From an uncultured Acidobacteriota bacterium (GTDB lineage: Bacteria; Acidobacteriota; Vicinamibacteria; Vicinamibacterales; UBA2999): 64,000 nt of DNA. The first letter of the stretch is position 1. Each line of letters begins with the position of its first letter. This document shows, in pieces, positions 5,745-61,466 of this stretch. The notes under the pieces were generated by a model. It had not been told where the DNA came from and ran no database searches. It was given only the letters and a program-made list of their open reading frames with translations. Location: the NCBI GenBank assembly GCA_963742105.1, contig CAVUKN010000002.1:79702-143701 (forward strand). The letters are read 5' to 3'. The translations under genes were made by a program, and so were the position numbers.

Positions 5745-6248
5745 GTGGGATTCGCCCCGCGTTCGAGCCGCCTTCTGGCGCTGCTTGCGTGCCTGGCCAC
5801 GGTCGGCTGCGACCGCGTCACCAAACATGCGGCCGTCACGCTGCTGGCCGACGCACAGGACCGATCGTTTCTGGCCGACACCGTCCGCCTGTCGTACGCG
5901 GAGAACACCGGCGGGTTCCTGAGTCTCGGCGCCGACCTCCCGGTCGAGCGTCGGCTGGTCGTGTTCACCATCATCACCGGCGTGCTGCTGGTGACCCTCG
6001 CGGCGGCGGCGATTCACCGCCGCTGGGCCGGGGCGCGACTCCTCGGTGCTGCACTGATTGTCAGCGGCGGCGCATCCAACTGGATCGATCGCGTCGCCGT
6101 CGGCTCGGTCGTCGACTTCCTCAACCTCGGGATTGGCCCCGTGCGGACGGGAATCTTCAATGTCGCTGACGTGGCGATCATGGCCGGAGTCGTGCTGCTG
6201 ATGGTCGCCGCCCGGACCTCGCCTGGAGAGATAGTCACCAAGGACTGA
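5745..6248 (+). CDS. lspA: Lipoprotein signal peptidase II
   Basis: ENTGGFLSLG, GGASNWIDR, VVDFL, IFNVADVAI motifs. Confidence 0.9.
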   Translation: MGFAPRSSRLLALLACLATVGCDRVTKHAAVTLLADAQDRSFLADTVRLSYAENTGGFLSLGADLPVERRLVVFTIITGVLLVTLAAAAIHRRWAGARLLGAALIVSGGASNWIDRVAVGSVVDFLNLGIGPVRTGIFNVADVAIMAGVVLLMVAARTSPGEIVTKD

Positions 6249-6267
6249 CGCACATGTCGATACAGCA

Positions 6268-7023
6268 ATGGCGGGCGGGGTGAGCGGCCACGGTGTCCTG
6301 GGGATGCTGACAGCATTCGCCATCGCCGCGTGGTCCTCGCCAGCAGCAGCCGCGGCGCAGCAGGCGCAGATCGCGAACCTGACCGGGACCGTCTACGATC
6401 CGAACGGACAGCCGGCGGAGAACCTGCTGCTGATGCTCGTCGGACGCGACTCGGACGTGTCGGTGAATGTGCGCAGCGACGGCGATGGACGTTTCCGCGT
6501 GACATCGATTCCACCAGGCCGATACCTGCTGCGCACGCCGGTGACGGATCTGCTGTCCCCGGCGGTGGTGGAGATGACCACGGGTGAGAACAGTGTCGAA
6601 GCCCACATGGAGCTTGACGATACCGCCGTGCTGATTCGCGTCTGTCGAGAGTGCAAGCCTGCCGAATACCGGCTGCCGGACGCGATCACGCACGAGTTCA
6701 CCGATCAACATGACGAGCTGTCGGCGGCGATCCTGCGGCGCGCCGAGCCCGAGGAGGGCTGGGACGCATTCAACCAGCGCCCGTATCCGTATCCGCCGGC
6801 GATGAAGAATTCGAAGCTGGAAGGATCAGTCGAGATCAGGGGGATGATCGCCATCGACGGCGGGAGCAGCGATCTGGAGGTCGTCTCGTCGACCGACCGC
6901 CGCCTGACCGATTCGGCAATGCAGCTCGCGCAGCAGCTGCGCTGGCATCCGGCACGCCTCCGCTCGACAGCAGTCCGGGTGCCGCTGCGTGTGACCGTCG
7001 AGTTCTCGATCTACGGCGATTGA
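6268..7023 (+). CDS. Carboxypeptidase-regulatory-like domain + TonB C-terminal domain protein
   Basis: Signal peptide; GTVYDPNG...PPGRY; YPPAMK...EGSVEI...WHPA TonB_C-like motif. Confidence 0.75.
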   Translation: MAGGVSGHGVLGMLTAFAIAAWSSPAAAAAQQAQIANLTGTVYDPNGQPAENLLLMLVGRDSDVSVNVRSDGDGRFRVTSIPPGRYLLRTPVTDLLSPAVVEMTTGENSVEAHMELDDTAVLIRVCRECKPAEYRLPDAITHEFTDQHDELSAAILRRAEPEEGWDAFNQRPYPYPPAMKNSKLEGSVEIRGMIAIDGGSSDLEVVSSTDRRLTDSAMQLAQQLRWHPARLRSTAVRVPLRVTVEFSIYGD

Positions 7024-7122
7024 GAGTGTGATGCGCGAGAGAGCTCCGCATCGCGACGAGGGTGAAAAAGAAAACGGCCGGCTGCTCTCGCAACCGGCCG
7101 TCGTATCCAACAGGACCGCGCG

Positions 7123-7545
7123 TTACTGCTGTTGCTGCTGCGCTGCTTCACGCTGCGCGGTGCCGCCGGCGAACATGCGACGACCGTCAGCGGTGGTGAT
7201 GGTGGCGTTGCCGACGTTGGTGGAATCCTCACGCTTCGCGCGGATGCCCTTGACCGACACCTGCTCGCCGACCTTCAGCGTGTCCTTGCGCCAGCCCGAG
7301 CGGTACAGAGCGTTCGGTGCGCCGCCCTCGACGCGATAGACGATGGTCTTCCCGTCCGCGCCTTTCGTTTCCACCTGGGTGTAGATGTGCGGGTTCGTCC
7401 ACTCCACCTTCTTGACGGTGCCGGTGAACTCGACCGGCTTGCTGGTATCGAATTCCGCTGACACGGAATGGTGTGCACGCGCCGGCGTCACGGCGACGAT
7501 GGTGCCGAACGCCAGTACGGCGAGCCCAGAAATGAGCTTCTTCAT
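7123..7545 (-). CDS. DUF6152-family secreted protein
   Basis: Signal peptide then AHHSVSAEFD; VEWTNPH; LKVGEQVSVKG. Confidence 0.85.
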   Translation of the reverse strand: MKKLISGLAVLAFGTIVAVTPARAHHSVSAEFDTSKPVEFTGTVKKVEWTNPHIYTQVETKGADGKTIVYRVEGGAPNALYRSGWRKDTLKVGEQVSVKGIRAKREDSTNVGNATITTADGRRMFAGGTAQREAAQQQQQ

Positions 7546-7554
7546 AGATCCCTG

Positions 7555-7971
7555 CTATTTCCCTACTGTTGCGCCTGCGCGCCGCCGCGTGCCCGCGAAC
7601 ATCCGACGGCCATCCGCTGTGGTGATGGTGGCCTGCCCGACGTTCAGCGAATCGTCGCGCTTCGCACGAATTCCCTTTACGGTGACTTCCTCGCCGACCT
7701 TCAGCGAGTCCTTGCGCCAGCCCTGACGGAACAGCGAGTTCGGCGGTCCACCTTCGACGCGGTAGACAACCGTCTTGCCGTCGGGCGTCTTGGTTTCGAC
7801 CGACGTATAGATGTGCGGGTTCGTCCAGTCGACTTTCTTGATCGTTCCCTTGAATTCGATCGGCTTGCTCGTGTCGAACTCCGCCGCGACCGAGTGATGA
7901 GCCCTTGCCGTGGCCGCACCAACGATCATCGCGACGACGGCAACGAACAGGACCGAGGCTTTACGTGCCAT
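7555..7971 (-). CDS. DUF6152-family secreted protein (tandem paralog)
   Basis: AHHSVAAEFD, VDWTNPH; mature region very similar to 7123-7545; GGAGG RBS. Confidence 0.85.
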   Translation of the reverse strand: MARKASVLFVAVVAMIVGAATARAHHSVAAEFDTSKPIEFKGTIKKVDWTNPHIYTSVETKTPDGKTVVYRVEGGPPNSLFRQGWRKDSLKVGEEVTVKGIRAKRDDSLNVGQATITTADGRRMFAGTRRRAGATVGK

Positions 7972-8015
7972 TGAAATTCCTCCCTGCATGAATCGCACGC
8001 GGACCGAATCCGCTA

Positions 8016-8966
8016 TCAATAATCGTCCTCCGGTGGGGTCCACCGCTTGATCGCGCCGCTCAGAATATTGTCGAGATTATTCTCCTCGCACGAATATTCC
8101 ATGATGACATCGCCCGCCGGCTTGATGCGCCAGGTGCGGACGTTCATCCAATCCTGCGTGTAGGTCAGCGGGTCGTGCACGGTGACGGTGTGCTCGATCG
8201 TGTTCGAGTCCGTCCGCTTCAAGGTGTTGGTCATCACCAAGTCCTTGCTGTGCGGATGACCTGACGTGTCGAGGCGCGTGTAGCCGTTGAATCCCTTGGT
8301 CTCGATGATCAAGGTGTCGCCGTCCCATCGGCCGGTCGAGATACCGTTCCAGCTCTCCGGGATGTCGGCCGGCCACTTGAAGGCAGGGTTGGTCGGGACC
8401 CAGTGGAACCAGGTGTTCTGCTCGAACATGATTGCCAGCGCGTCGTTGTTCTGCACCATCTGCAGGCCGTGCGGCGAGTTGATGTTGCGAGACATCCCGA
8501 ACGGCAGGCAGGTGCCGGCATAGTCACCCTTGTTGACCGGGTCGTATTCCTTCCAATGCTTCAGGCCCTTCTCGGTGTAGGGCAGGTCGTAGGTACGGGC
8601 GCCCCGACCGGTTGCCGAGGCCCGCGCATCCGCCAGCGGCTCACCCATGCGCGCGAACTGCAGCGGCATGCGCGTCTTGGGATCGAGCACCGATCCGCGC
8701 GCCGCCATGTCGGGCGTGTAGGGGTTGTTCCAGTGGCCGCTCATATCCGGCTTGCCGTTCGGCAGGCGTGGCGTTGGACCCGCTGGCGGCAGGTTCGCCG
8801 CACCGCGACCACCACCGCGGGCACCACCTCCAGCCGGTGCCCCTTGCGCCCCCTGCGCACCCGGGGCCGCGCCACCCTCGCGCTGCGCCAGCGTCAGCAC
8901 CGGCGTAACGGCCATCGCCGCCACGATCGCCGCCCACATCAGGCCCTGATTTAAACGAGTGCTCAC
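8016..8966 (-). CDS. Conserved secreted hypothetical protein, usual partner of DUF6152 genes
   Basis: PRLPNGKPDMSGHW, CLPFG, GISTGRWDGDTLIIET, IMEYSCEENN; GTG start after GGGAG. Confidence 0.8.
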   Translation of the reverse strand: MSTRLNQGLMWAAIVAAMAVTPVLTLAQREGGAAPGAQGAQGAPAGGGARGGGRGAANLPPAGPTPRLPNGKPDMSGHWNNPYTPDMAARGSVLDPKTRMPLQFARMGEPLADARASATGRGARTYDLPYTEKGLKHWKEYDPVNKGDYAGTCLPFGMSRNINSPHGLQMVQNNDALAIMFEQNTWFHWVPTNPAFKWPADIPESWNGISTGRWDGDTLIIETKGFNGYTRLDTSGHPHSKDLVMTNTLKRTDSNTIEHTVTVHDPLTYTQDWMNVRTWRIKPAGDVIMEYSCEENNLDNILSGAIKRWTPPEDDY

Positions 8967-9345
8967 GGTCAATCTCCCTGAAGAATCCACCCGGATCGGG
9001 ACGCGCCACGGACGCCGCCCCAGATATCTGTAACGCGTGAGGATAATCCGTGCATGAGCGAAGGGCAAGACGATTGCACGGCCGCGCCGCCGATTGCTTG
9101 AGAAATGGCTTGTCTCGGCCATCTCATTGATTCTACAGATGTTGGCCCGCCTGGGCTGTCCGCCGCAGGTCGTCCGCCGATTTCACATCTGCACCTTCTT
9201 CGACCGTCTGACGGGTCGGAACCCTCCCGAGACGGCGCGGACCTGACAAAACGCCGACACCATCCTCGAAACTTCCCTACCGAGTTCGGTCCCGAGGGCT
9301 CGACCTGAGCCTTTGGGAGTCGGGCCGTCGTCAGCCGTTTCGGAG

Positions 9346-9867
9346 TTAGGCGTCATCACCGCCTGCGAGAAACGAGGCTGGGAAGAGATGGGCACTCCCG
9401 TCCATGTTTCCGGTTTCTGAATACCGCAGTGGCGTGCCGTCGGGTTTAAGGAGGTCGCCCGCGACCACGTGCGCGACCACGATGATGTGATCCCCCGCTG
9501 GAAGGTGCCGGTCGACGTGACAGCCAAGCCATGACACGGCGTCCGGCAGCACGACGAAACCTTCCGGCCCGGTGTTCGTGCGCACGCCAGAGAACTTGTC
9601 GAGCTCGCGTCCCGAGGTCAGGCCGAAATGACGCGCCACCTCCAGCTGACTCGAGTCGAGCACATTGACCGCAAACCGACGGCCCGCCTCGATCAGCGGC
9701 CAGGTGGCATTGTGCGGATTGACGCTGACCGCGAGGAGCAAAGGAGCGAACGACACCTGCATCACCCATGCGGCCGTGAATCCGCCCTGCGTCCCCTCGT
9801 GCGAGGCGGTCACGACGTAGACGCCGGTGGTGAGACGACGGAACAGTTCGACGGGAGGCGCGGGCAC
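9346..9867 (-). CDS. Flavin reductase-like protein
   Basis: TGVYVVT, QVSFAPLL, FAVNVL, DKF, AGDHIIVVA. Confidence 0.9.
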   Translation of the reverse strand: MPAPPVELFRRLTTGVYVVTASHEGTQGGFTAAWVMQVSFAPLLLAVSVNPHNATWPLIEAGRRFAVNVLDSSQLEVARHFGLTSGRELDKFSGVRTNTGPEGFVVLPDAVSWLGCHVDRHLPAGDHIIVVAHVVAGDLLKPDGTPLRYSETGNMDGSAHLFPASFLAGGDDA

Positions 9868-9885
9868 GGAGAAATCTTAACGATT

Positions 9886-10037
9886 CTTGATTCTGATTCT
9901 GACTGATTCGTGATTCGTGATTGGGATTCGCCTTGGGTTTCCGGAGGGCTCGCGCATAATCCTCGTGAATGTTGCTCTGCCGTCTGCTGCGAGGCACTGT
10001 CGCGTCCGTCCGATTCACGAATCACGAATCACGAATC
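9886..10037. repeat. Inverted heptamer arrays (GATTCGT)n at 9886-9929 and (ACGAATC)n at 10011-10037
   Basis: Directly visible, flanking a divergent intergenic core. Confidence 0.85.
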
Positions 10038-10049
10038 CAAGGAGCCGCC

Positions 10050-10451
10050 ATGTCTGACCGCTATCTCCGCATCGTGCTCACCATCATCGCCGTTGAACTG
10101 GGGTGGCTGGGCGTCAAGGACGTGATGCCGACGGTTGCCTCCGCGCAGGCGCAGCCGGCGGCGACGCGAGTTGTGATCACCGGCGTCGATCTACCGACGC
10201 GGACCCAGTTTCTTCCGGTTGCCGTCGCCGGCAGCGTTCGCGGCGTGACCGTTCCGCAGTGGGCGCAAGCGGACGCCCTGCACGTCGAACCAGGCGAGCG
10301 CGGCTTCCGTGTGGAGTCCGGCGATCGGCCGCTGCGCGTCGAGGTCAGCGGTCCGGTGAATGCACGCGTCGTCGAGCCGATCCATGTCGACACGTCACAA
10401 CCCCTCGACGTGCGCGGCGTGGTCCAGACGTCAGCACGGCCGGGCATATAG
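10050..10451 (+). CDS. Hypothetical membrane-anchored protein
   Basis: AAGGAG RBS; DRYLRIVLTIIAVEL N-terminal hydrophobic segment. Confidence 0.7.
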   Translation: MSDRYLRIVLTIIAVELGWLGVKDVMPTVASAQAQPAATRVVITGVDLPTRTQFLPVAVAGSVRGVTVPQWAQADALHVEPGERGFRVESGDRPLRVEVSGPVNARVVEPIHVDTSQPLDVRGVVQTSARPGI

Positions 10452-10477
10452 GGCGTTCCGACGGAATGTTCTGACCG

Positions 10478-10899
10478 ATGTCTCCTGACGATCGGTGCAG
10501 CGAAGCCCGCCGGCTGCAACAGATCGACGCCGCGATGCGCGCCGGGACCTCGACGCGTTACGCGCGGCCGTGGGCGATCCGGCGGTGATTCCCAACGGGC
10601 GCCTGCATCCGGCCATGGGGACCTGTCTGGTACGGGCGATCGCGCTCAGCCCCCTGCCCTTCATCCGGACGCTGCCGGAGCTTGGCGCCGATCCGAATGC
10701 GCCGGCCGACGATGGCTTTCCGCCCTTGATCTCCGCTCTGTTCAGCGGACGCAGTGCGCCGGGATTGACGCCGCGCACCGACGTCACCGAGCTCGTCCGC
10801 CTGCTGCTCGCCTTCGGTGCGGATCCGAATCAGCGCGGCATCAACGACTACACCGCCGACGCGGCAGCGTCTCCGCTCGGGGCTGACGCTGCTCACTGA
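10478..10899 (+). pseudogene. Ankyrin-repeat protein, frameshifted near 10545 and apparently truncated
   Basis: MSPDDRCSEARRLQQIDAAMRAG joins DLDALRAAV with one added G; LGADPN...DDGFPPLISAL; LLLAFGADPNQRGINDYT. Confidence 0.65.
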
Positions 10900-11239
10900 C
10901 ATTCCCGGGATCGGCGGACCTGTCCGGCGGCAGCACGTTTATCGGATCAGGCTGCGACTTCTCCTCAATCGAGGCGAGGCGGTGCGCTGGACGACGCCGT
11001 GGGGTCCCGTCGGTGCGGCCCGCCTGGAAGACGACGGCGAGACGCTGGTCATCGAGGTGCGCGTCGATCGGCGATCGTTCATCAGCGGATTGTTCTACGG
11101 GATCGATGGCATGCGGGTCGGCGGCACGCGACGACTCGAAATCGCGCCTCACCTCGGCTACGGCGAGCAGGGCGTGCCCGGCATCATCCCCGGCAACGCG
11201 GTGCTGATCGCGGAGGTCACGGTGGTCGGGGAGAGATAG
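10860..11239 (+). CDS. FKBP-type peptidyl-prolyl isomerase domain (possibly C-terminus of the ankyrin gene)
   Basis: GMRVGGTRRLEIAPHLGYGEQGVPGIIPGNAVLIAEV; no convincing start codon of its own. Confidence 0.75.
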
Positions 11240-11351
11240 TCGTTCGAGGCGTTCGAATCGTTCGAGGCATTCGAATCGTTCGAGGCGTTCTGAGTCGTTC
11301 GACTTCGCGAACCGAAGGGTTCGAACGCGTCGAACGACTCGAACGATCGGA
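11239..11351. repeat. 9-mer repeats (GTTCGARKC)n with inverted TCGAACGAC arm
   Basis: Directly visible between convergent genes; related copies at 50034-50068, 54099-54138, 56662-56677. Confidence 0.8.
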
Positions 11352-11354
11352 TCG

Positions 11355-11747
11355 CTACTTCACGTGCTTGCTGACCAGCTTGGTCATCTCGAACATGTTG
11401 ACCGAGCCCTTGCCAGCGAACACCGGCTTCAGCGCCGCGTCGCTGTTGATCATCCGGCGGTTCTTCTGGTCCTGGAGGCCGTTCTTCTTGATGTAGGCCC
11501 AGAGCCGCTTGGTGACTTCGGTGCGCGGCAACGGCTTGTCGCCGACCACCGCCGCGAGCGCCGAGTCCGGTGTGACAGGGGCCATGAAGGCGGCGTTCGC
11601 CCGGCCGCGGCCGGCGGACTTGCGGGCACCCTTGGCGCTCTTCGCGCTCTTCTTCGCTGCACCCTTCCGCGCCGGAGCGGCGCGCTTGACGCTCTTCACA
11701 CTCTTCTTCTTCGCACCCTTCGCACTCTTCGCGCTCTTCTTGGCCAT
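11355..11747 (-). CDS. SWIB/MDM2 domain protein with Lys/Ala-rich N-terminal tail
   Basis: LAAVVGDKPLPRTEVTKRLWAYIKKNGLQD...MFEMTKLVSKH; AAGGAG RBS. Confidence 0.92.
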   Translation of the reverse strand: MAKKSAKSAKGAKKKSVKSVKRAAPARKGAAKKSAKSAKGARKSAGRGRANAAFMAPVTPDSALAAVVGDKPLPRTEVTKRLWAYIKKNGLQDQKNRRMINSDAALKPVFAGKGSVNMFEMTKLVSKHVK

Positions 11748-12004
11748 CCGTGCTCCTTCACGCGCCCGTGTCGGCCGCGGTCTGCGGCGGCGATCGACGC
11801 TGAAAACAGGGAGATTATGCCTGAAAAGTGGAGCGATGGCGCAGGAGAAATCGCACGATCACGCTGTCGATCGCCGCCGCGATCGTCGGCACGCGCGAGT
11901 GACGATCGTGCCGCGAGCCTCGTCAGGCTCGCCTGGAGATCAGCATTGATGGTGCGGTTCGATCACTAGGTCCTCCTGGCGACTCGGTGATCCCTCTCGC
12001 AGCG

Positions 12005-12460
12005 CTACCGCAGTCGCGCCGTCGCGACCACCGCCGAATGAAGGCGCAGCACTTCGCCGGGAACGGTGCCCAACGTGCTCTCGTCCCAGCGAAATTGGAT
12101 GGTTCGCTCACCGTCATCATCGCGGCGTTGCACGGTCATTGTCGTGGTCACGCAGTCGCTGCAGATACCGGAAGTGCCCACAGCGGGGTGTGCCGAGACA
12201 TCCGCAACCAGGCGAACGTCTGCGACCAGCTTTCCTATCGATTGCTGGGCCCCCGCAGCCAGACGTGAAGGACACGACGCTGTCGACGGGCAAAGCAGCT
12301 CTCCCGCGGAACTCGCGGTGAAGCTCCCCGAGCCGCGGCCGGTGAAGCCGCCGCTCGTCTCGATCCGGACAATCCAGGCTCCGGCCCCCGCAGGGAGCGC
12401 GAACGTCGGAGATTGAGCCACCTGCGCAGCCAGGAAGAGGAGCACAACGGTTGCGGTCAC
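12005..12460 (-). CDS. Secreted hypothetical protein
   Basis: Hydrophobic N-terminus; IETSGGFTG motif; co-oriented with neighbours. Confidence 0.6.
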   Translation of the reverse strand: MTATVVLLFLAAQVAQSPTFALPAGAGAWIVRIETSGGFTGRGSGSFTASSAGELLCPSTASCPSRLAAGAQQSIGKLVADVRLVADVSAHPAVGTSGICSDCVTTTMTVQRRDDDGERTIQFRWDESTLGTVPGEVLRLHSAVVATARLR

Positions 12461-12466
12461 GCTGGA

Positions 12467-12937
12467 TTAGACGGACTGCCGCAGCCGAGAGTTGGAGCGA
12501 TGCAGGCGCTCGAGCACGTGCACCAGTTCCGGCGGGTACATGGGGATCTCTCCGCCTGTCAGCCGTCCGATTGCAACCCATACCGCCGGGCCGTCACAAA
12601 CGGTCTCGTTGACGACGAACCGTTCGTGCTCATAGGACGAGGGATCGGCGAATGTCGCATCGAAGAGGAACGTGATTTCGTGGTGCAGACGTCCACCCCA
12701 CTCACAGACGTCCTCGACGACATCCAGCGGTGACACGTCGCCCAGCTCGACGCCGATTTCCTCGTGCAGCTCACGCCGGACCGTGTCGGCGGCCCGCTCG
12801 CCGAACTCGATCGCGCCGCCGAGAAATCTCCCGTAACGGACGCCGGAGGCGGGGTCGAGCGCGAACGAGAGCAACACGTCGCCGCCGCGTCGAATGATGG
12901 CCCTCGCCTTGACCTTGATGGGCAGACCGCGGTTCAT
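12467..12937 (-). CDS. NUDIX hydrolase
   Basis: Nudix box GGAIEFGERAADTVRRELHEEIG. Confidence 0.9.
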   Translation of the reverse strand: MNRGLPIKVKARAIIRRGGDVLLSFALDPASGVRYGRFLGGAIEFGERAADTVRRELHEEIGVELGDVSPLDVVEDVCEWGGRLHHEITFLFDATFADPSSYEHERFVVNETVCDGPAVWVAIGRLTGGEIPMYPPELVHVLERLHRSNSRLRQSV

Positions 12938-32072: not shown

Positions 32073-32220
32073 CGCGAGAGCCCGCCGACGATGGTTCACT
32101 CGCCACGGACGTTAGCCACGGAGACACAAAGACCCGAAGCTACGAGGTACCGAGGAAACCAACAACACTCCGTGCCTTCGTGGCCAAGTACGTGACACGC
32201 ATTCCTGCACTCACGACGCC

Positions 32221-49247: not shown

Positions 49248-50033
49248 ATGCCGAGCCATTTCATCTGGTACGAACTGCTCACGCCCGACGTCGAGGCGTC
49301 ACAGCGTTTTTACACCGCCGTCGTCGGCTGGGCGGTGAACCCGAGTCACCATGCTGCCAGCCACTATCGCCACCTCACTGCACCCGACGGTGAAAGCGTC
49401 GGCGGCATGCTGCAGCTTACCGAGCAGATGACTGCGGGAGGCGCTCGCCCGGTCTGGCTCGGTTACATCGACGTGCCCGACGTGGACGCCGCAGTCACGT
49501 CGATCGAAGCACAGGGCGGCAGGACGCAGATGCCGGCGATGACGATCGAGAGCGTCGGCCGGATGGCGATGGTGGCCGATCCCCAGGGTGCGCCTTTCTA
49601 CGTGATGACGCCGACACCTCCTCCCGATCGTCCTGACGCGCGGAGCACGGCGTTCCTGCGGAATGCGGTGGGCCACTGCGGCTGGAACGAACTGGCGGCG
49701 AGCGATCCCAAGAAGGCCTTCGCGTTCTACACGGGCCAGTTCGGATGGATCGACGGCGGCTCGATGCCGATGGGCGAGGTGGGGGACTACCAGTTCTTCA
49801 ACGACGAGAGTGGCATGATCGGCGCCGTCATGAGCAGTTCCGCCGGTAGTCGGCCGTCGCTGTGGACCTACTACTTCCGGGTCGCCGACATCGATGCCGC
49901 GAAGGCAGCCGTCGAGGCAGGTGGCGGGACTGTCATGCACGGCCCGCAGGATGTTCCCGGTGGTGACTACATCCTCATTGGTGTCGATCCGCAGCACGCC
50001 ATGTTCGCGCTGATCGGACCACGGCGGAGCTGA
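49248..50033 (+). CDS. Two-domain VOC/glyoxalase protein
   Basis: FIWYELLTPD; GRMAMVADPQGA; WNELAASD; DPQHAMF. Confidence 0.92.
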   Translation: MPSHFIWYELLTPDVEASQRFYTAVVGWAVNPSHHAASHYRHLTAPDGESVGGMLQLTEQMTAGGARPVWLGYIDVPDVDAAVTSIEAQGGRTQMPAMTIESVGRMAMVADPQGAPFYVMTPTPPPDRPDARSTAFLRNAVGHCGWNELAASDPKKAFAFYTGQFGWIDGGSMPMGEVGDYQFFNDESGMIGAVMSSSAGSRPSLWTYYFRVADIDAAKAAVEAGGGTVMHGPQDVPGGDYILIGVDPQHAMFALIGPRRS

Positions 50034-50143
50034 GTCGTTCGGGTCGTTCGGATCGTTTGCTGGTTCGAGTTGATGATCCGAATTCGCATAGTCCTGCCTC
50101 GCTGGCGGAGGTAGTAGAAGCTCTGACACGAAAGGACGTCATC

Positions 50144-50431
50144 GTGCCGGCACACGTCATCGTTCAATTCGCCGCGGAATACGAGGGCGCGCGCGGGAAG
50201 CCTGAAGAAGGCAAGACTGCCGCGCCTCCTGTGACCGCCCGGGTGAAAAGACTTGTGGCCGACCATGACGGCCAGTTGTCCCTCACTCCTTCGGAACCCG
50301 GAACCTCCCCCCCTTCCATGGCCATGATCACCGTTCCGGACATGGACCGGGCCAATGCGCTCGCCAACGCGCTGCGCGACCTCGACGGAGTTGAAACGGC
50401 GTACTCCAAACCGGGCGAGGAACTGCCTTAA
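50144..50431 (+). CDS. Small protein resembling a stand-alone subtilase prodomain/inhibitor
   Basis: AAAGGA RBS + GTG; C-terminus LRDLDGVETAYSKPGEELP parallels LAASELVDAAFVKPGTELP in the downstream S8 prodomain. Confidence 0.65.
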   Translation: MPAHVIVQFAAEYEGARGKPEEGKTAAPPVTARVKRLVADHDGQLSLTPSEPGTSPPSMAMITVPDMDRANALANALRDLDGVETAYSKPGEELP

Positions 50432-50446
50432 CGACGGAGCACCGAC

Positions 50447-52391
50447 ATGGCACGAAAACGCGCGCGCACCAGCCAGAAATCTCAGTCTTCAGCGGTCATG
50501 CTGCCAGGCGAACTGGTCGTCGTGACCCGGCGGGAGGCGGCCTTCCGGTCGTCCGCCGGCCGGTTCGAGTCGGCGTCGGGTCAGAACGTGTCCGACCTGG
50601 CCAACCTGTTGAAGCGGCACGGCGCCAGAATGAGCCCGATCTTTGGCGCCACCGAGGAGCGCGTCATGGCGCGCATGGCCGCGGTTCGGGAAGCGGCACA
50701 CGCCCCGATGGAGGACCTGTCGGTGTTCTATCGCGTCGACGCGCCCGCCCGAGCGACTCCCGGAGCTTCGCGATCGATTGGCGGCCAGCGAACTCGTGGA
50801 TGCCGCGTTCGTCAAGCCCGGGACCGAGCTCCCCGCGATCAACGACATGACCGCTGCGCCCGAGGAGCCCCCACCGGCAAGCCCCGACTTCAGCGCGCGG
50901 CAGACGTATCTGGACGCTGCGCCGGGCGGCGTCGACGCCCGCTGGGCATGGACCCAGTCGGGTGGCCGCGGCCGCGACGTCCGGATCTTCGACGTCGAGG
51001 GCAACTGGCGCTTCACGCATGAGGATTTGACCCAGAACCAGGGTGGTGTCGTCGGCGGTTCACCGCTTGCCGGTGTGGACTGGACCAATCACGGCACCGC
51101 CGTGCTCGGCGAGTTCAGCGGCGACGTCAACAGCATCGGCATCGTCGGTATCTCTTCGGATGCCACCGTCAGCGCGGTGTCGCACGGGGGCATCGGATCG
51201 GCCGCGGCGATCAACCAGGCCGCCTCGCGCTGCCGCGCCGGCGACATCATCCTGCTCGAGATGCATCGACCCGGACCCCGCTTCAATTTCGCATCCCGCA
51301 CCGACCAGCGCGGATACATCGCGGTCGAATGGTGGCCTGACGACTTCGCGGCGATCGTCAACGCGACCAGCCGCGGGATCATCGTGGTCGAAGCCGCGGG
51401 GAACGGCGCCGAGAATCTCGACGATGCGCTGTATCAGACAGCGGCGGCCGGCTTCCCGTCCGGGTGGCGAAATTCGTTCCGTCGATCGAATCGCGACTCG
51501 GGAGCCATTGTCGTCGGAGCCGGCGCCCCGCCTCCAGGCACGCACGGTCGCGATTGGGGTCCCGACCGGTCCCGTCTCGACTTCTCGAACTGGGGTGCAC
51601 TGATCGACGCGCAGGGCTGGGGCCGCGAGGTGACGTCCTGCGGGTATGGCGATCTGCAGGGTGGCACGAGCGAGGATCTCTGGTATACCGACACCTTCAG
51701 CGGTACGTCGAGCGCGTCGCCCATCGTTGTCGGCGTCATTGCCTGCGCACAGGGCATCGCGAAGGCGCGTGGCAGCGCGGTGCTCACGTTCACGCAGATC
51801 CGGAACTGCCTCCGGTCGACGGGATCTCCCCAGCAGGACGCGCCAGGGCGTCCCGCATCCCAGCGCATCGGCAATCGTCCCGACCTGCGCGCCTTCATCG
51901 CCTGCGCATTGCCGAAGCGGAAGGAACTCGTCAAGGAGATCGCCAAAGAAATCGCCAAGGAGGCGGTCAAGGAAATCAAGGACACGAAGGAAGTCAAGGA
52001 AATCAAGGAGAAGGAAACGAAAGAGCTCGTCAAGGAGGTCAAAGAGAAGGACGTCAAGGAGTTCAAGGAAGGCAAAGAGGTCAAGGAGACGATCAAGGCC
52101 GAAGGCAAGGAACTGAAAGAGAAGGACAAGGATAAGGACCTTGTCGAGGGCAAACTGATCGAGAACAAAGTCGCTGAAACCCTCGGTGGCCTGCAGCAGT
52201 TGAACACGGGGGCAGGAGGAGCGGGCGTCGGCGAGCGGCTGTCGGCTCTCGAACAGACGGTCCAACAGCTGGTTCACTTCATCGGCCAGGAACTCCGGCC
52301 CGACCTCAGTCGATCCGCGCTTCAGGGCAGCAGCCAGGCGGCCAAGGACGATAAGGATCTCAAGGACTCGGAGAAAGGGTCCGAGTCGTAG
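50447..52391 (+). CDS. S8 serine peptidase with Lys/Glu-repeat C-terminal tail; frameshift near 50748
   Basis: Catalytic IFDVEGNW (Asp), NHGTAVLG (His), AAGNG (oxyanion Asn), FSGTSSASP (Ser); ORFs 50447 and 50643 join at RVDAPA/ERLPEL after removing one C. Confidence 0.9.
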
Positions 52392-52434
52392 CCTCCTGAC
52401 CGGCGCCAGCATCCTGGCGCCGGTCATCACCCTG

Positions 52435-53145
52435 ATGCTGGTGATTCTGTGTCATCCCGACGACACTTCTGCGCTCTGGCTCGATCGCCAGCTATCGGAA
52501 GCCGGCGTGGACGTCACGCTGGTGTCGGTCGAACAACTGGTGTTCAGCCGGAGCATCACGCACGCACTCACCTCGACGGCTGATACCGGCACCATCCGGC
52601 TCGCTGACGGCCGCGTGTTGCATCCCGAAGCCATCGCCGGGCTGATCAACAGGGTGCGATTCGTCCCGACGCAGCACTTCACCAATGCAGCTACCGGCGA
52701 TCGTGAGTACGCGACGGCGGAGCTCCACGCCTTCCTGCTGGCGTGGCTCAATGGCGTTGCCGGTCGCGTGTTGAACCCCGCTCGACCGCTGCTCCTCGGC
52801 GGCGGCATCAACGACATGGCCGCCATCCGACACTATGCGGCCCTGGCGGGGCTGCCGGCGCCGGGATGGAGTCGAACCACCCGTCGCGTCGATCTTGACA
52901 GCCCCGTCTCTCCGACCCACAACGTCATCGTCCTCGACGGCCGAGGATTCGGTCCGATCATTCCCGCGGAACTTCTGGGCGGATGCGGCCGTCTGGCGGC
53001 GTATCTGGGTACGCCGCTGCTGCAGATCGCGTTCTCGCGGAACGCAGTCGGGAGGTGGGAGTTTCTCCACGCAACGGCGAAGGTCGACTTCGAACGCGGC
53101 GGCCGGCCGCTGGCCGCCGCGCTCGCGCGCACGGTGGCCGCGTGA
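52435..53145 (+). CDS. Degenerate ATP-grasp-like accessory protein
   Basis: LVILCHPDD...INRV...LLAWL...VLNP..AALAGLPAP resembles the N-half of ATP-grasp ligases; canonical ExN motif absent; GTGA overlap with next gene. Confidence 0.6.
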   Translation: MLVILCHPDDTSALWLDRQLSEAGVDVTLVSVEQLVFSRSITHALTSTADTGTIRLADGRVLHPEAIAGLINRVRFVPTQHFTNAATGDREYATAELHAFLLAWLNGVAGRVLNPARPLLLGGGINDMAAIRHYAALAGLPAPGWSRTTRRVDLDSPVSPTHNVIVLDGRGFGPIIPAELLGGCGRLAAYLGTPLLQIAFSRNAVGRWEFLHATAKVDFERGGRPLAAALARTVAA

Positions 53146-54095
53146 TCCTGATCGCCGGGATCTCCGACGAAACACCGGTGTCGCAAGTAATCGAGGCGCT
53201 CGAAGGCAGCGGCGCGGAGTATCGCGTGTTCGATCAGCGCGGTGTTGCCGCGGTGCACATGACTCTCGAGATCGGAGATGCCGCGGCGGGAGGAGCGCTC
53301 GGCGGGTACCTCGAACTGGACGGCGAGACCGTTCCCCTGTGCCGTATCACCGGACTCTACTTGCGGACGATGGACGACCGCCTGCTGCCGGAGATCGTCA
53401 ATGCGCCGGTCGGTGCACCGCAACGCCTCCACGCGCGCCGACTGCACGAGCTCCTGCTGGCATGGGCCGACCTGATGCCCGGCCGCGTACTCAACCGTCC
53501 GACGGCGATGGCGTCCAATCAGTCAAAACCGTACCAGGCCCAAATCATCCGAGAGGTCGGATTCGGGATTGCGGAGACGTGCATCACCAACGACCCGGAC
53601 GCCGCGCGCGCGTTCATCGCGCGCATTTGGGGGGAAGGCGGCGGCGTGATCTACAAGTCGATCAGCGGCATCCGTTCGATCGTCCAGAAGGTGACGAAGC
53701 ACGACCTCGATCGGCTCGATCGGATCCGCTGGTGCCCGACCCAGTTCCAGCGGCTTGTGGAGGGACAGGACATCAGGGCGCATGTGATCGGTCGCACGGT
53801 GATCGCGACCGCGATTGCGAGCGCCGGCGTCGACTACCGCTATGCCGCGCGCGACACCGGGACACCGGCGCAGCTCGAGGCCGTGACGCTGGAACCAGCG
53901 ACGGTAGCGCGCTGCGTGGCGCTGTCGCAGCGTCTGGAGCTACCGCTGGCCGGCATCGATCTGCGGCGGACGCCGGATGGGGAGATGGTCTGCTTCGAGG
54001 TCAACCCGAGCCCCGCCTTCAGCTTCTACCAGCAGGGCGCCAGCCAGTCGATCGCCACGTGTATTGCGCACTACCTGGCCGGTGACTGCGATTGA
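53142..54095 (+). CDS. RimK-like ATP-grasp ligase
   Basis: VLNRP...NQSKPYQ, IYKSISG, FQRLVEGQDIRAHVIG, AGIDLRRTPDGEMVCFEVNPSP. Confidence 0.9.
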   Translation: MILIAGISDETPVSQVIEALEGSGAEYRVFDQRGVAAVHMTLEIGDAAAGGALGGYLELDGETVPLCRITGLYLRTMDDRLLPEIVNAPVGAPQRLHARRLHELLLAWADLMPGRVLNRPTAMASNQSKPYQAQIIREVGFGIAETCITNDPDAARAFIARIWGEGGGVIYKSISGIRSIVQKVTKHDLDRLDRIRWCPTQFQRLVEGQDIRAHVIGRTVIATAIASAGVDYRYAARDTGTPAQLEAVTLEPATVARCVALSQRLELPLAGIDLRRTPDGEMVCFEVNPSPAFSFYQQGASQSIATCIAHYLAGDCD

Positions 54096-54133
54096 GCGTG
54101 AACGATCGAACGATTCGAACGACTCGAACGATT

Positions 54134-54796
54134 CTAGAACTTCGCCTCCTGCACCAGCCCGACCACACCGTTCCAGAAGATCGCGACACCCACACACAGC
54201 AGGATGAACGCGGACAGTCGCAGGAACACATTGGTTCCCGTTTCCCCAAGCGCGCCGATCAGTCGGGTGGCAAAGCGGTAACAGACGTTGATGGTCACCG
54301 CGACAATGGCGGCGCCGATAATGCCTGCACCGACACGTATCAGGCCGGCCGGCCGATCGAGCGCAGCGCCGGCACCGAGCGTGATGGCGACGGAGATCGA
54401 CCCGGGACCGACCGTCAGCGGGAAGGTGAGCGGGTAGAAACCGCGCTTCGCGGCCTCGCGTTGCCACGCATCGGTGATGCTCGTGGGTGGCGCGTCGGAC
54501 GCGTCGGGCGTATCACCGGCGTGCAGCAGTTTCCAACCGGTTGAAAGCAGCACGAGTCCGCCCGCAACCCTGACGATCGGGATCGAGATGCCGAAAAAGG
54601 CAAGGAGATGCGAGCCGCCCAGCATCGCGGCGACCAGCAGCAGGAAGGCGTTCCTCGCCACCACCCAGGCGAGCTGCTGGCGGGCGGCCGCCGGCAGATC
54701 CGCCGAATGCGCAAGAAAGATCGGCGCGCTGCCTAAGGGGTTGACGATCGGCAGCAGCGCCGCGACGGTGACGAGGATCGCCTCGAGTCCCTGCAT
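54134..54796 (-). CDS. MarC-family membrane protein
   Basis: IVNPLG, RVAGGLVL, YPLTFPLTVGPGSI, RLSAFILLCVGV. Confidence 0.92.
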   Translation of the reverse strand: MQGLEAILVTVAALLPIVNPLGSAPIFLAHSADLPAAARQQLAWVVARNAFLLLVAAMLGGSHLLAFFGISIPIVRVAGGLVLLSTGWKLLHAGDTPDASDAPPTSITDAWQREAAKRGFYPLTFPLTVGPGSISVAITLGAGAALDRPAGLIRVGAGIIGAAIVAVTINVCYRFATRLIGALGETGTNVFLRLSAFILLCVGVAIFWNGVVGLVQEAKF

Positions 54797-55644: not shown

Positions 55645-56659
55645 ATGTTCGGCACCGACCTTCCGATCATCCAGGCACCGATGGCCGGTGCACAGGGCAG
55701 CGCGATGGCCATTGGCGTGTGCAACGCAGGCGGAATGGGATCGTTGCCATGCGCGATGCTCACGCCGGATGGCATCGCGAAGGAAATCGCGCAGATCCGC
55801 GCGCACGTCCAGGGCCCGTTCAACGTCAACTTCTTCTGTCACACGCCACCTGAACCTGACGCCGAACGCGAGCGCACGTGGCGAACGCTGCTCTCGCCCT
55901 ATTACGCGGAACTCGGCCTCGAGCCACCAGCAACGAAAGGCCCGGTCCGGACGCCGTTCGATGCCGCTGCTGCTGCCGTGCTCGAGCAGCTCACACCGCC
56001 GATCGTCAGCTTCCACTTCGGACTGCCGGCCGACCCGCTGCTGCAGCGGGTCCGTGCCACCGGCGCAAAAATCTTCGCGTCGGCGACGACGGTGGACGAA
56101 GCGCTGTGGCTGCAGGGGAAAGGCGTGGACGCGGTCATCGCTCAGGGAGTCGAGGCCGGAGGACATCGCGGTATGTTCCTGTCCGACGACATCACCACGC
56201 AGGTTGGAACGATCGCGCTGGTCGCGCAACTCGTCCACGTGCTGTCGGTGCCGGTGATCGCGGCAGGCGGTATCGCCGACGCCAGCGGCGTGAGGGCGGC
56301 CCTCGCACTTGGGGCGGTGGCAGCCCAGGTTGGGTACTGCCTACCTGCTCTGCCCCGAAGCGACGACGACCGCGGTCCATCGCGCTGCGCTGAGCAGCGA
56401 CGCCGCCCGACACACGGCGTTGACCAACCTGTTCACCGGACGACCGGCCCGCGGTATCGTCAACCGCGTGATGCGTGAGCTCGGGCCGATGCGCACGGAC
56501 ATTCCGCCGTTCCCTCTCGCCTCCGCTGCGATCGTGCCGTTGCGCACCGCAGCCGAGGCCACCGGGAGTGGGGATTTCTCGCCGTTGTGGGCCGGTCAGA
56601 ACGCCGCGGGTTGCCGCGCTGTGTCCGCCGGCGCGTTGACGCGACAACTGGCGCCGTAG
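55645..56659 (+). CDS. Nitronate monooxygenase family, frameshift near 56332
   Basis: PIIQAPMAG, VSFHFGLP, AQGVEAGGHRG, IAAGGIAD, AQVG/TAYLLCPE, FTGRPARG, LWAGQ. Confidence 0.9.
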
Positions 56660-58624: not shown

Positions 58625-61466
58625 ACAAACTGGCCGACGTCGAGCGGATTTGTCTCGCCGCGCTGGAGCACCCGGCGAGCGAACGTGCGGCGTTCGTCGT
58701 CGAAGCCTGCCAGGGCGACGAGGCGCTGCGGCACGAGGTCGAGTCGCTGCTGGCGCACGCCTCGCCGGCCGAACAGTTCCTCGCGCAGCCGGCACTGCAC
58801 GCGGACGCGGCGCTCGCCGGCCTGAGCGGGCTGTCGATCGGGCAGCGCCTTGGCGCGTATCAGATCATCGCGCAGGCTGGGCGTCGGCGGCATGGGTGAG
58901 GTCTATCGCGGCCGCGATACCCGACTCGGACGCGATGTCGCGATCAAGATCCTGCCGGTCGTCTTCGCGGCGGACCCGGAGCGGCTGGCGCGGTTCGAGC
59001 GCGAGGCCCGTCTCCTCGCCTCGTTGAACCACCCGCACATCGCCGCCATCTACGGGATCGAAACCGGCCCCGAGGAAACCGGACACCAGGTGCGGGCGCT
59101 CGTCATGGAACTGGTGGAGGGCGTTGCGCTGTCGGACCGGATCGCGCGCGGCCCCGTGCCGGTCACCGAGGCGCTGGCCATCGCGCAACAGATCGCCGAC
59201 GCCCTCGCGGCGGCGCACGAGCAGGGCATCATCCATCGCGATCTCAAACCGGCCAACATCCGGCTCCGCCCCGACGGGACCGTGAAGGTGCTGGACTTCG
59301 GCCTGGCCAAGGCGCTGCCCGCCTCATCGGCACTGGCACACCCCTCGTCGGCGTTACCGACGGCTCACCTGTCCGAGTCGGGGATCATTCTCGGTACCGC
59401 CGCCTACATGTCGCCGGAGCAGGCACGCGGACAGTCGGTCGACAAGCGATCCGATGTCTGGGCGTTCGGCTGCGTCCTCTTCGAAATGCTCGCAGGCCGG
59501 AAGGCGTTCGCCGGCGAGACCGCGACGGACACGCTCGCCGCGATCATCGAACGCGAGCCGCCGTGGACGACGCTGCCAGCGTCCGTGCCCGCGAGTGTTC
59601 GACGCCTGTTGCAGCGTTGTTTCGAGAAGGATCCCAAACGGCGGCTCCGTGACATCGGCGACGCGCGCCCGGAGCTCGAGGACAGTCAGGGCGGGCAGCC
59701 TGGCCTCCCCATCGTCCCGGTGCCGTCACGACGCCGCGAGCGGCTGGCGTGGCTGTCGGGCCTCGCGCTCGTCACACTGATTGCCGCCGTGACGATCGTA
59801 TGGGCGTTGCGTTCGGCGCCAACCCTGCCCGAGACACGGTTCGATATCCACACGCCTCAGACGAGGGACCTGTCGATGGCGATCGCGCCCGACGGGCAGA
59901 CGCTGGCGTTCGTGGCGGCCTCCGAAAGTGGCCCGAGAGTGTGGCTACACTCGCTGCTTTCCGGCTCCGCGCAGCCCCTGGCAGGAACTGAAGGAGGGCG
60001 TTCTCCGTTCTGGTCACCGGACAGCCGGTTCGTTGGATTCTTCGCAGAGGACAAGCTGAAGCGAGTCGATGTCGCCGGCGGAGGAGTCCAGGTGCTGGCA
60101 AATGCACAGAACGGGTTCGGCGGAGCCTGGAACCGCGACGGCACGATTCTGTTCGGCATGTCGCCGAACGCACCAATTTTTCGCGTCTCTGAGACCGGTG
60201 GCGTGCCTGCGCCCGTGACGCCCGCAGGACAACCTGGCCAACACATTTTCCCGGCATTCCTCCCCGACGGTCGTCATTTCCTGTACTACGTCGAAGACAT
60301 CGCCGAACCCGGGATCTATGTCGGGCAGATCGACGGTGGTGAAACGCGGCGCCTGCTGGCCGCAGACTCCCCCGCGGTGTACGCCCCCTCGGGACAACTG
60401 CTGTTCATCCGGAAGGACGCGCTGTACGCGCAGAACTTCGATCCCGTGCGTCTGGAACTGACTGGAAATCCCTATCCGGTTGCGGGCGGCGCTCTGAGCG
60501 GGTCCGTGTCCGTGTCGGCGACGGGCGCCGTCGCGTATCGCCCCGGGGGGATTCGGAGTGGGATCTGCTCCGCAACAATTGATTTGGTTCGACCGGTCCG
60601 GCCGGGAGATTGAGAACGCAGGCGATCCGGTGCACTCGGGTCGGGCAAACCCCGAGATGTCTCCTGACGGTCGGCACGTTGCGCTATGGCGCATAGTGAG
60701 CGGGAATATGGATGTGTGGTCGTTCGACCTGCGTCGACGTGCGCTCAGCCGGCTGACCACCGACGCGTCGTCAGACAACAACCCGATCTGGTCACCGGAC
60801 GGGTCCCGTATCGTGTTCACCTCGGACTCGGAAGGGCACGTACTTGATCTCTACGACGATGTCGGCCACAGGCGCGGGAAGCGAAAAGCCGCTGCTGGCA
60901 ACAGGACAGAGTCTGAATCCGTCGGACTTTTCGCGTGACGGGCAGTTCCTGCTGTACAGCAGCGCCGATCCAACAACGCGGCACGACATCTGGGCATTGC
61001 CGATGCGTGGCGGGGGAAAACCGGTTTGCGGTCGTCCAGACGAGTGCCGACGAACAGCACGCGCAGTTCTCGCCGGACGGCAAGTGGATCGCGTACCAGT
61101 CGGACGAATCAGGTCGCGACGAGGTCTATCTCCAGCCGTTCCCAGGGCCAGGAGGCCGATCGACGATGTCCACCAACGGCGGCGTCCAGGTCCGTTGGCG
61201 GCACGACGGCAAGGAACTGTTCTATATCGCGCTCGACGGCCGCCTGATGGCGGTTCCGATCCGACTCTCTGCCGACGGTCACACCGTCGAGGCGGGCGTC
61301 CCGGCTGCGCTGTTTCTCACGCGCGTGTTCGAAATTCATGGAATCAACATCCGGCAACAGTACATGCCGTCCCCGAACGGCCAGAGCTTTCTCGTCGATT
61401 CGGTCACGGAAGAACCTGCTCCAGTCGCCGATTACAGTGATCCTGAACTGGAAGCCCAAGCCGTAA
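58621..61466 (+). CDS. Ser/Thr protein kinase with TM segment and PD40/TolB-like beta-propeller; about 5 frameshifts
   Basis: LGVGGMGEVY, VAIK, HRDLKPAN, DFGLAK, GTAAYMSPEQ; SPDG repeats; ends ITVILNWKPKP; pieces join near 58875, 60550, 60857, 61024, 61423. Confidence 0.88.

Follow-up and report, generated by a model that had tools for sequence, protein, structure and literature searches.

Lysine-rich C-terminal tails as predicted substrates of a graspetide-type ligase and its inactive paralogue in an uncultured Acidobacteriota bacterium

A 64,000-nucleotide (nt) stretch of DNA from an uncultured Acidobacteriota bacterium, called the window below, carries at positions 50144..54095 (+) a gene group in which an ATP-grasp ligase and a catalytically dead paralogue follow a protein that ends in a lysine- and glutamate-rich tail. 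The tail is the probable substrate of the ligase: judged from the sequences, the enzyme would bind a conserved C-terminal motif and form many Lys-Glu/Asp isopeptide links along the tail. As the preliminary description of this DNA had stated, and as the open reading frames (ORFs) of the window confirm, the group consists of four co-oriented genes, separated by gaps of 15 base pairs (bp; 50432-50446) and 43 bp (52392-52434) and then joined by a GTGA overlap (53142-53145). They encode a protein of 95 amino acids (aa), an S8 protease bearing the tail, a 236-aa pseudo-ligase and a 317-aa ligase (Table 1). The unit conserved across related loci is the charged tract with its C-terminal motif, the pseudo-ligase and the intact ligase; the protease is not part of it.

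Evidence for this unit comes from two sets of loci. The first, gathered with the ligase as query, is the best 80 of 147 loci and spans, by record label, 11 bacterial phyla and one archaeon. Searched with the window's own sequences, these loci have a pseudo-ligase just upstream in 78/80, a match over the protease's 67 C-terminal residues in 72/80 and an S8 domain in 20/80. Profiles built from most of the loci find the pseudo-ligase in 80/80 and the motif in 76/80, and at the four loci where the motif is missed (L002, L050, L053 and L054) the contigs break off at the pseudo-ligase gene or shortly ahead of it. The preliminary description had proposed asking whether such ligase pairs usually occur without a K/E-rich neighbour; with a charged tract of at least 25 aa in 71 of the 76 tail proteins, its central idea withstands that check. 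The second set starts from another pair in the same genome, at locus L081 (G000:C7:1862000-1878000), where 6732-12737 (-) includes a 228-aa Lys/Asp-repeat protein. With the ligase of this pair as query, the best 80 of 153 metagenome loci include 38 with about 1.5 kb of upstream sequence, and a pseudo-ligase is present in all 38. Tract and motif pass the threshold in 27/38, and eight more have the motif with a tract that is weaker or cut off, which brings the count to 35/38 and leaves L115 (contig end), L156 and L176 as misses. Gene order varies at L113, L114 and L117, where the tail gene and pseudo-ligase lie on the opposite strand to the ligase and converge on it, while L115 is cut by its contig end.

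Searches that start from the other components lead to the same association. A motif-first search of 401 genomes of the window's phylum gave two strong matches, both directly upstream of a pair, and these two genomes have the two best ligase scores; two weak motif matches cover the helix only. Within the window's own family, none of 12 other genomes has the motif, and the unit is therefore patchy. Twenty other genomes, with no ligase match at expectation value (E) <=1e-30, hold the same S8 family at 22 places, and there 0/20 parsed ORFs carry a tract or motif (two ORFs were unparsed and one is open-ended). By comparison, 97 of the 120 closest relatives of the L001 protease have tract and motif, three have the tract only and are seemingly cut short, and 20 have neither by the test applied (one unparsed). 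In the window's own genome, two of the three K/E/D-rich ORFs stand directly before a pair. Ligase relatives are numerous, with 4591 at E<=1e-20 among 7999 scored, not all of which necessarily belong to the tail system; none was found in viral contigs, nor in plasmids at E<=1e-30.

The ligase had been described as intact and RimK-like. It is indeed intact, every catalytic position checked being kept, but its kinship is with the graspetide synthetases. Among NCBIfam models it scores best with TIGR04187 (E 7e-31), followed by MvdD (1e-22), MvdC (3e-19) and RimK (3e-13), all under their cut-offs. A profile of 66 rows (the window plus 65 of the 80 loci with all three parts complete, L058 being left out for its broken ligase frame) was compared with the Protein Data Bank (PDB). 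Its top six matches are PsnB, MdnC/MdnB, CdnC, AMdnB and PruB, at E 2e-39 to 1e-20 and over nearly the full length, with PsnB the closest solved structure (E 2e-39). RimK structures follow at E 6e-10 or weaker and match the C-terminal part only, whereas the N-terminal domain is matched by graspetide synthetases alone. Residues R75, K129, K172, R212, D231-Y-R233, D273, E286 and N288 are invariant in 66/66 rows, and by alignment the ligase has equivalents of PsnB Arg72, Lys172, Arg213 and the DFR loop, together with the metal-binding D/ExN. These comparisons support a graspetide-type ligase rather than a RimK.

Its neighbour has no Pfam or NCBIfam match. Aligned with the ligase by hhalign, the 236-aa protein nonetheless runs end to end with it (97%, E 1e-10). 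The N- and C-terminal domains are both retained, whereas the middle domain and the DYR loop are gone and the ExN region reads A-T/S-P. A profile of the pseudo-ligase found nothing among PDB sequences at E<0.1, and the relationship to known structures came from a fold search: an AF2 model with a predicted local distance difference test (pLDDT) score of 90.6 gave PruB, AMdnB, MdnB and MdnC as top Foldseek matches, at E 7e-12 to 1e-10. The alignment bears out the earlier account of an ATP-grasp-like protein without ExN; as one copy is without catalytic residues, the two are not a pair of active ligases. By sequence, the pseudo-ligase is a conserved dead paralogue and not a second active ligase, and the simplest role, and a likely one, is that of a permanent partner subunit. 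At L025 pseudo-ligase and ligase share one stop-free frame, 5963-7720 (a single case); among 7996 candidates no longer, fused form of the pseudo-ligase was found, which is weak evidence.

The composition of the tail is compatible with an amine donor. In the window the tract has 25 Lys, 19 Glu, 5 Asp, 3 Thr, 0 Ser and 1 Arg among its 75 aa, so that Lys is the main possible donor; Lys is followed by an acid 23 times, against 8.1 in shuffles. The tail had been put at about 90 aa of Glu/Asp, Lys, Ser or Thr residues, which these figures correct. Among 16 charged segments in the genome's long ORFs that pass the filter, only one has at least five times as many Lys as Arg, and that one is the window tract itself. 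Over the 71 first-set tracts, chosen with a score in which Lys and Arg count equally, there are 1997 Lys against 165 Arg, with K>R in 71/71 and Ser plus Thr at 2.9% of residues; second-set tracts have 617 Lys against 37 Arg. The neighbouring enzymes go the other way, at 712 Lys against 3477 Arg, as do the genome's long ORFs, at 32088 against 107171. Such a bias is in keeping with amine donation and amide bonds; on charge only, Arg would be tolerated as well. The tracts have a period of three (Lys-Lys at lag 3 is 1.62x shuffles), and Lys-to-acid pairs are enriched 1.94x at lag 1 and 1.54x at lag 4, the second set giving 2.43x and 1.64x at the same lags. The K-x3-E/D spacing, as in the KxxxD of corallotide, is one candidate link pattern.

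After the tract, the upstream proteins end with the motif RLxxLExxVxxLxHFIxxxLRPDLxxGAL. This is the most conserved part of the tail, its residues R, E, F, I, R and P being invariant in 66/66 rows, and it was absent from the preliminary description. Proteins of the second set have a subtype of it, GRxFIxPEERPxVG, with the FI...RP core in 35/35, found partly with a pattern of our own. The tails would be ribosomally made substrates adjoining the ligases and rich in donor and acceptor side chains.

On these observations, the likeliest mechanism is one in which the ligase, with its dead paralogue as partner subunit, binds the C-terminal motif and uses ATP to phosphorylate Glu/Asp side chains. The activated carboxyls would then be joined to Lys amines, repeatedly along the tract, to give a multiply cross-linked tail on a full-size protein. 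The chemistry would be intramolecular amide formation, and the recognition sequence would stand after the core rather than before it. That pseudo-ligase and ligase may act as a heterodimer is suggested by PsnB, an asymmetric dimer with one subunit empty (bioRxiv 10.1101/2021.03.09.434688), and by MyxD2, which requires binding to its paralogue (PMC12848669). The protease would be cargo, most likely restrained by the free prodomain, and the cross-linked tail might serve as a rigid spacer, a protease-proof handle, an oligomer cross-link or a released product. A wider interpretation can be put forward more tentatively: a portable protein-modification tag, present in at least 11 bacterial phyla and an archaeon, in which the heterodimer reads the motif and the poly-isopeptide segment stays on full-size proteins. 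It would cover proteases, Kelch and Ig-repeat proteins and a component of a contractile-tail-like operon, the tagged chains being possibly interlinked.

Several points weigh against motif-guided formation of Lys-Glu/Asp links. The loci are kin, so that the counts above are inflated and do not represent independent trials. Lys-rich low-complexity tracts also occur without any modification. Even against its best family, TIGR04187, the ligase reaches 107.6 bits where the cut-off is 350. The K-x3-E/D enrichment (43/71 proteins) follows from the three-residue period and is weak in the window itself (p 0.07), and KxxE, the spacing targeted in MyxF, is depleted (0.70x at lag 3). RimK-like chemistry would also be compatible with a catalytic Arg and DFR-like residues taken alone, as similar sequences are found in RimK (bioRxiv 10.1101/2021.03.09.434688). 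There are also pairs without a typical tail. At L123:1-297, L143:533-823 and L156:450-947 small proteins with PVETK/PVKTE (Thr/Lys/Glu) repeats and a C-terminal helix take its place, L176 has a degenerate motif and no K/E tract, and the small K/E-repeat proteins at L087:4244-6653 (-) and L088:6108-8662 (+) have no FI...RP motif. The order at these last two, which are sister loci, is pseudo-ligase, ligase and then one or two small K/E-repeat proteins that share an N-terminal segment and a C-terminal helix, and the partner paralogue at L087 is near full length. At L143 and L156 a further conserved gene lies downstream on the other strand.

The proteins that carry the tail are diverse. Among 75 tail ORFs, 44 are shorter than 330 aa (two being fragments), and the stand-alone tail ORFs inspected hold K/E repeats and the motif only, with no catalytic domain. 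The 31 long first-set carriers comprise 19 S8 proteases, 9 trypsin/NAL1-like proteins, one with a B-lectin domain and two without a family. To these come two trypsin-like proteins and, at L025:98-5806, a frame of 1903 residues that contains IPT/TIG repeats. In the second set, the 31 carriers include 10 Kelch, 4 DUF6519, one tyrosinase, one alpha/beta-hydrolase-like and one weak Phi_1 protein, and 14 have no family. Cargo labels are scattered over a quick tree, with 6 changes for S8 and 5 for trypsin-like carriers. Strongly supported branches force only one of these changes, and a single origin of the cargo types is compatible with them. The outgroups of the tree are unnamed ligases with long branches, and the tree was used only for this scatter and for the 81-row clade discussed below.

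Some pairs adjoin more than one tail. At L007, L015, L076 and L104 two tail-bearing proteins lie beside one pair, and one ligase therefore likely serves several carriers. The L081 pair closes an operon reminiscent of injection systems or contractile tails (phrog_6 baseplate wedge at E 9e-34; the rest by eye), a context that the DUF6519 carriers may share. Beyond its ligase, L081:6037-6741 (+) and 4399-5298 (-) have weak 2-oxoglutarate/Fe oxygenase-type matches (WelO5, E 4e-4; PhyH, E 9e-4); an enzyme of this type hydroxylates a corallotide lactam.

Could the protease be the reason for the tail rather than its cargo? The tail might be the precursor of a peptide made on the ribosome and modified after translation (RiPP), fused to its own processing protease, with S8 cutting off the cyclised tail and releasing cyclic peptides, perhaps protease inhibitors. 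This shares the chemistry proposed above and differs in the fate of the tail. In its favour, the S8, trypsin/NAL1-like and further trypsin-like proteins make proteases the main large cargo of the first set. The junction after the S8 domain is also conserved, one 8-mer recurring in 64 of the top 120 relatives, and Carter 2026 proposes a maturation or resistance role for the proteases of its group 32 (PMC13097080, available in part). However, more than half of the tail ORFs are short and the second-set carriers belong to other families or to none. At the 41 stand-alone loci, moreover, a peptidase domain is present in only 1/77 flanking ORFs (one per side, picked heuristically) and no transporter recurs, and therefore the unit appears to need no protease of its own. 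A substrate fused to its own processing protease, as the preliminary description had it, does not hold as a general rule, and we regard release of the tail by the fused protease as unlikely.

Somewhat less likely again is that the ligase joins tails between molecules, giving covalent oligomers, networks or ties to a partner. The strict three-residue period would, by its presumed geometry, set Lys apart from the acids, on different faces of an extended chain, the carriers include Kelch, TIG and DUF6519 proteins and the end-of-operon protein of the contractile-tail-like cluster, and ThfB can cross-link assembled chains (PMC12291112). Against this, the natural graspetide links in the papers cited, as far as these were available, are intramolecular, and a single chain holds both Lys and acids, at nearly equal counts.

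Tailing of the RimK/TTLL type, in which free amino acids such as glutamate would be added to the tail or the C-terminus, has a slim chance of being correct. A Pfam RimK match exists (E 1.2e-6) and the tract offers many carboxyls and amines, but the ligase falls short of the RimK family threshold (TIGR00768, 49.7 bits against a cut-off of 143.4) while graspetide families score higher, and the PDB comparison given above separates the two in the same direction. The C-termini of the carriers also vary, many ending in Lys (by eye). Finally, the tail could be an unmodified charged spacer with a binding motif, the pair binding or targeting the carrier and the ligase acting on something encoded elsewhere; a few loci lack a proper tract (L176), and Makarova 2022 suggested, in the text available, that the substrates of branches 7 and 8 are cut from other proteins (PMC8939145), but this is very improbable given stand-alone genes that encode only repeats and motif, a 12- to 17-fold bias of Lys over Arg, and the two of three K/E/D-rich ORFs placed directly before a pair.

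The cargo protein of the window requires a correction. As assembled, its gene lies in two frames, the ORF from the ATG at 50447 ending at 51022 and the catalytic part being in another frame. Three of four DNA sequencing runs compared (X1, X2 and X5, one of which may be the window's own source) have one base fewer at ~50744, the listed contig of the fourth begins at 50745, and relatives L001, L009 and L036 have a single intact protease ORF. Because these runs lack the base and the relatives have intact frames, the extra base most likely arose in assembly, which would make the real protease ~647 aa long. The frameshift had been overlooked in the preliminary description. The S8 triad called intact there is present, as Asp (50991), His (51090) and Ser (51708) with the oxyanion Asn (51402), and the domain scores above the Pfam cut-off (PF00082, 37.1 against 21.8 bits). 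The absence of an evident signal peptide agrees with a crude hydrophobicity screen, which flags one of 75 tail ORFs of the related loci, itself cut by a contig end.

The 95-aa protein appears to be a second copy of the prodomain. It aligns over its final 29 aa to a profile of 20 fused prodomains (E 6e-8), it shares the KPxxELP end point of the prodomain in the protease itself, and a similar small ORF lies upstream in 17 of the 19 S8 loci with DNA available (partly by eye). No match was found in Pfam (E<=0.1, Inhibitor_I9 included), NCBIfam or PHROG, and "I9-like" free propeptide inhibitor is a label that we assume for it. By analogy with subtilisin propeptides, it is likely a trans inhibitor or chaperone of the protease. 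The gene most likely goes with the protease, at S8-bearing loci only, and not with the ligase unit. In the Carter 2026 table, the group-32 "precursor" listed for WP_176228580.1 resembles, by eye, a free prodomain like 50144-50431.

Table 1. Predicted features of the locus, in window coordinates
Feature	Position	Strand	Basis
95-aa ORF, free-standing copy of the S8 prodomain	50144..50431	+	Profile match to fused prodomains
Prodomain of the S8 protease, no evident signal peptide	50447..50834	+	62-70% identity to intact relatives L001, L009, L036
S8 subtilase catalytic domain	50835..51914	+	PF00082, E 2.9e-9
75-aa (Lys-Glu/Asp-x)n tract, predicted isopeptide core	51915..52139	+	Composition, shuffles, 9-nt periodic DNA repeats
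Conserved C-terminal motif (RLxxLExxVxxLxHFIxxxLRPDLxxxAL), predicted ligase recognition sequence after the core	52236..52322	+	66-row conservation
Short second Lys/Asp repeat after the motif, possible further core	52344..52376	+	Kept in 12 S8 relatives inspected
236-aa pseudo-ligase	52435..53145	+	hhalign, AF2, Foldseek
317-aa intact ATP-grasp ligase, graspetide-synthetase type	53142..54095	+	Catalytic residues, PDB profile matches

The locus is flanked by genes for a glyoxalase-like protein (49248-50033, +) and a MarC transporter (54134-54796, -). Two 19-nt inverted arms (50032-50050 and 54107-54125) were considered as element ends and rejected, the sequence having 32 genome matches at <=2 mismatches; joints between the arms in sequencing-run contigs have short sides, and the arms probably belong to a dispersed intergenic repeat. 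A search for sigma-70 promoters was negative, and terminator matches are at chance level. Contigs from four RNA-library runs cover the small gene, the tail or the ligase, which does not prove transcription, and two of these runs (X17 and X18) look like one data set. At least half of the window's words are present in 14 of 24 listed sequencing runs, 13 of the 14 being labelled soil or rhizosphere. Further along the window, a nitronate-monooxygenase-like ORF (55645 onward, by eye) has an apparent frame change near 56310 (region 56257-56659), and a kinase ORF has one near 58850-58899; both are possibly further assembly errors.

If links of this kind form, graspetide chemistry would extend beyond small peptides with N-terminal leaders, and isopeptide modification of folded proteins would be widespread in bacteria yet unrecognised. 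The ligase would represent a naturally occurring enzyme of graspetide type that acts on whole proteins and works in follower orientation. As a means of recruiting a lactam-forming enzyme, a C-terminal tag of ~30 residues would be a useful tool as well, and such a layout has been engineered by Link and colleagues, according to the parts of their work available. The tail would further supply a likely substrate for a group of ligases without a precursor (probably branch 8, below) and for one with mixed candidates (group 32).

The system, earlier called a candidate new one, is not wholly new, since one published survey contains the ligase family and a second probably does, both being available here in part. 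Carter 2026 defines a predicted group 32 with "diverse families of neighboring proteases" (PMC13097080), a trait also seen here. The precursor listed there for MBV9141700.1 matches, by eye, the tail protein of L073, whose ligase is 48% identical to that of the window (E 2e-82) and falls with it in the same 81-row clade of the quick tree (Shimodaira-Hasegawa-like approximate likelihood ratio test, SH-aLRT, 94). Placed indirectly, through L073, the window ligase belongs with group 32, and the system would work in the manner of graspetides. By hand count, the FI...RP motif occurs in the sequences listed in 15 of the 50 table rows, of which about 9 also show K/E/D repeats; the other 35 list unrelated ORFs. 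Carter 2026 treats the proteases as neighbours rather than as substrate carriers; a term search of its main text for "follower", "fused" and "inactive" is negative (the motif may be shown in Figs S2-S20), and the text available reports no experimental test of group-32 members.

The second survey, Makarova 2022 (PMC8939145), describes a branch 8 with peptidases of unrelated families, as at window-type loci, an inactive shortened ATP-grasp protein and no precursor found; its 48 ligases have 284-335 aa save one of 243 aa, and most overlap Iyer et al. 2009. Matched by description only, the window ligase family is probably this branch. There are differences: the inactive copy of branch 8 has the two N-terminal domains only, while here a short inactive copy, present at 80/80 loci, keeps the N- and C-terminal domains, the loss being internal, and Makarova 2022 proposes substrates encoded elsewhere, while here the tail is adjacent. 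Four motif strings searched for are absent from the supplement text available. The gene group is thus already in print, and some stand-alone tails stand in a supplementary table; what is new is the substrate logic and not the enzyme family. No paper treating the tail as a substrate was found, most subscription papers lying outside the search.

Among characterized systems, as described in the parts of the papers available, the closest to the chemistry proposed here are corallotide and myxomiditide, in which graspetide ligases make repeated Lys-acid lactams. In corallotide (CorA/CorB, group 15) five KxxxD lactams are present on a precursor of 22 kDa (PMC13097080), and myxomiditide (MyxF, MyxD1/D2; PMC12848669) uses KxxE. 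The ligase paralogue MyxD2 works only in complex, as is proposed for the pair here, but it still makes rings, while the pseudo-ligase has no active site; and the substrates of both systems are dedicated precursor peptides, in contrast to tails on folded enzymes. PsnB, the plesiocin enzyme, has the same catalytic set as the window ligase. In fuscimiditide (ThfA/ThfB), the key motif RPFG resembles the RP-x-hydrophobic core of the tail motif, and ThfB remains active when the leader is relocated to the C-terminus (PMC13003496) and cyclises and cross-links whole proteins (PMC12291112). Unlike what is proposed for the tail system, PsnB and ThfA/ThfB make mostly ester links and have natural N-terminal leaders, the C-terminal placement and the protein substrates being engineered.

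RimK shares the ATP-grasp fold and modifies the tail of a full-size protein, but it adds free glutamate, matches the window ligase much more weakly and has no match to its N-terminal domain. Where conventional graspetides have a small precursor whose leader is N-terminal, the conserved motif here lies C-terminal to the repeats, on a protein of ~647 aa in the window, and the system is therefore not filed as a conventional graspetide.

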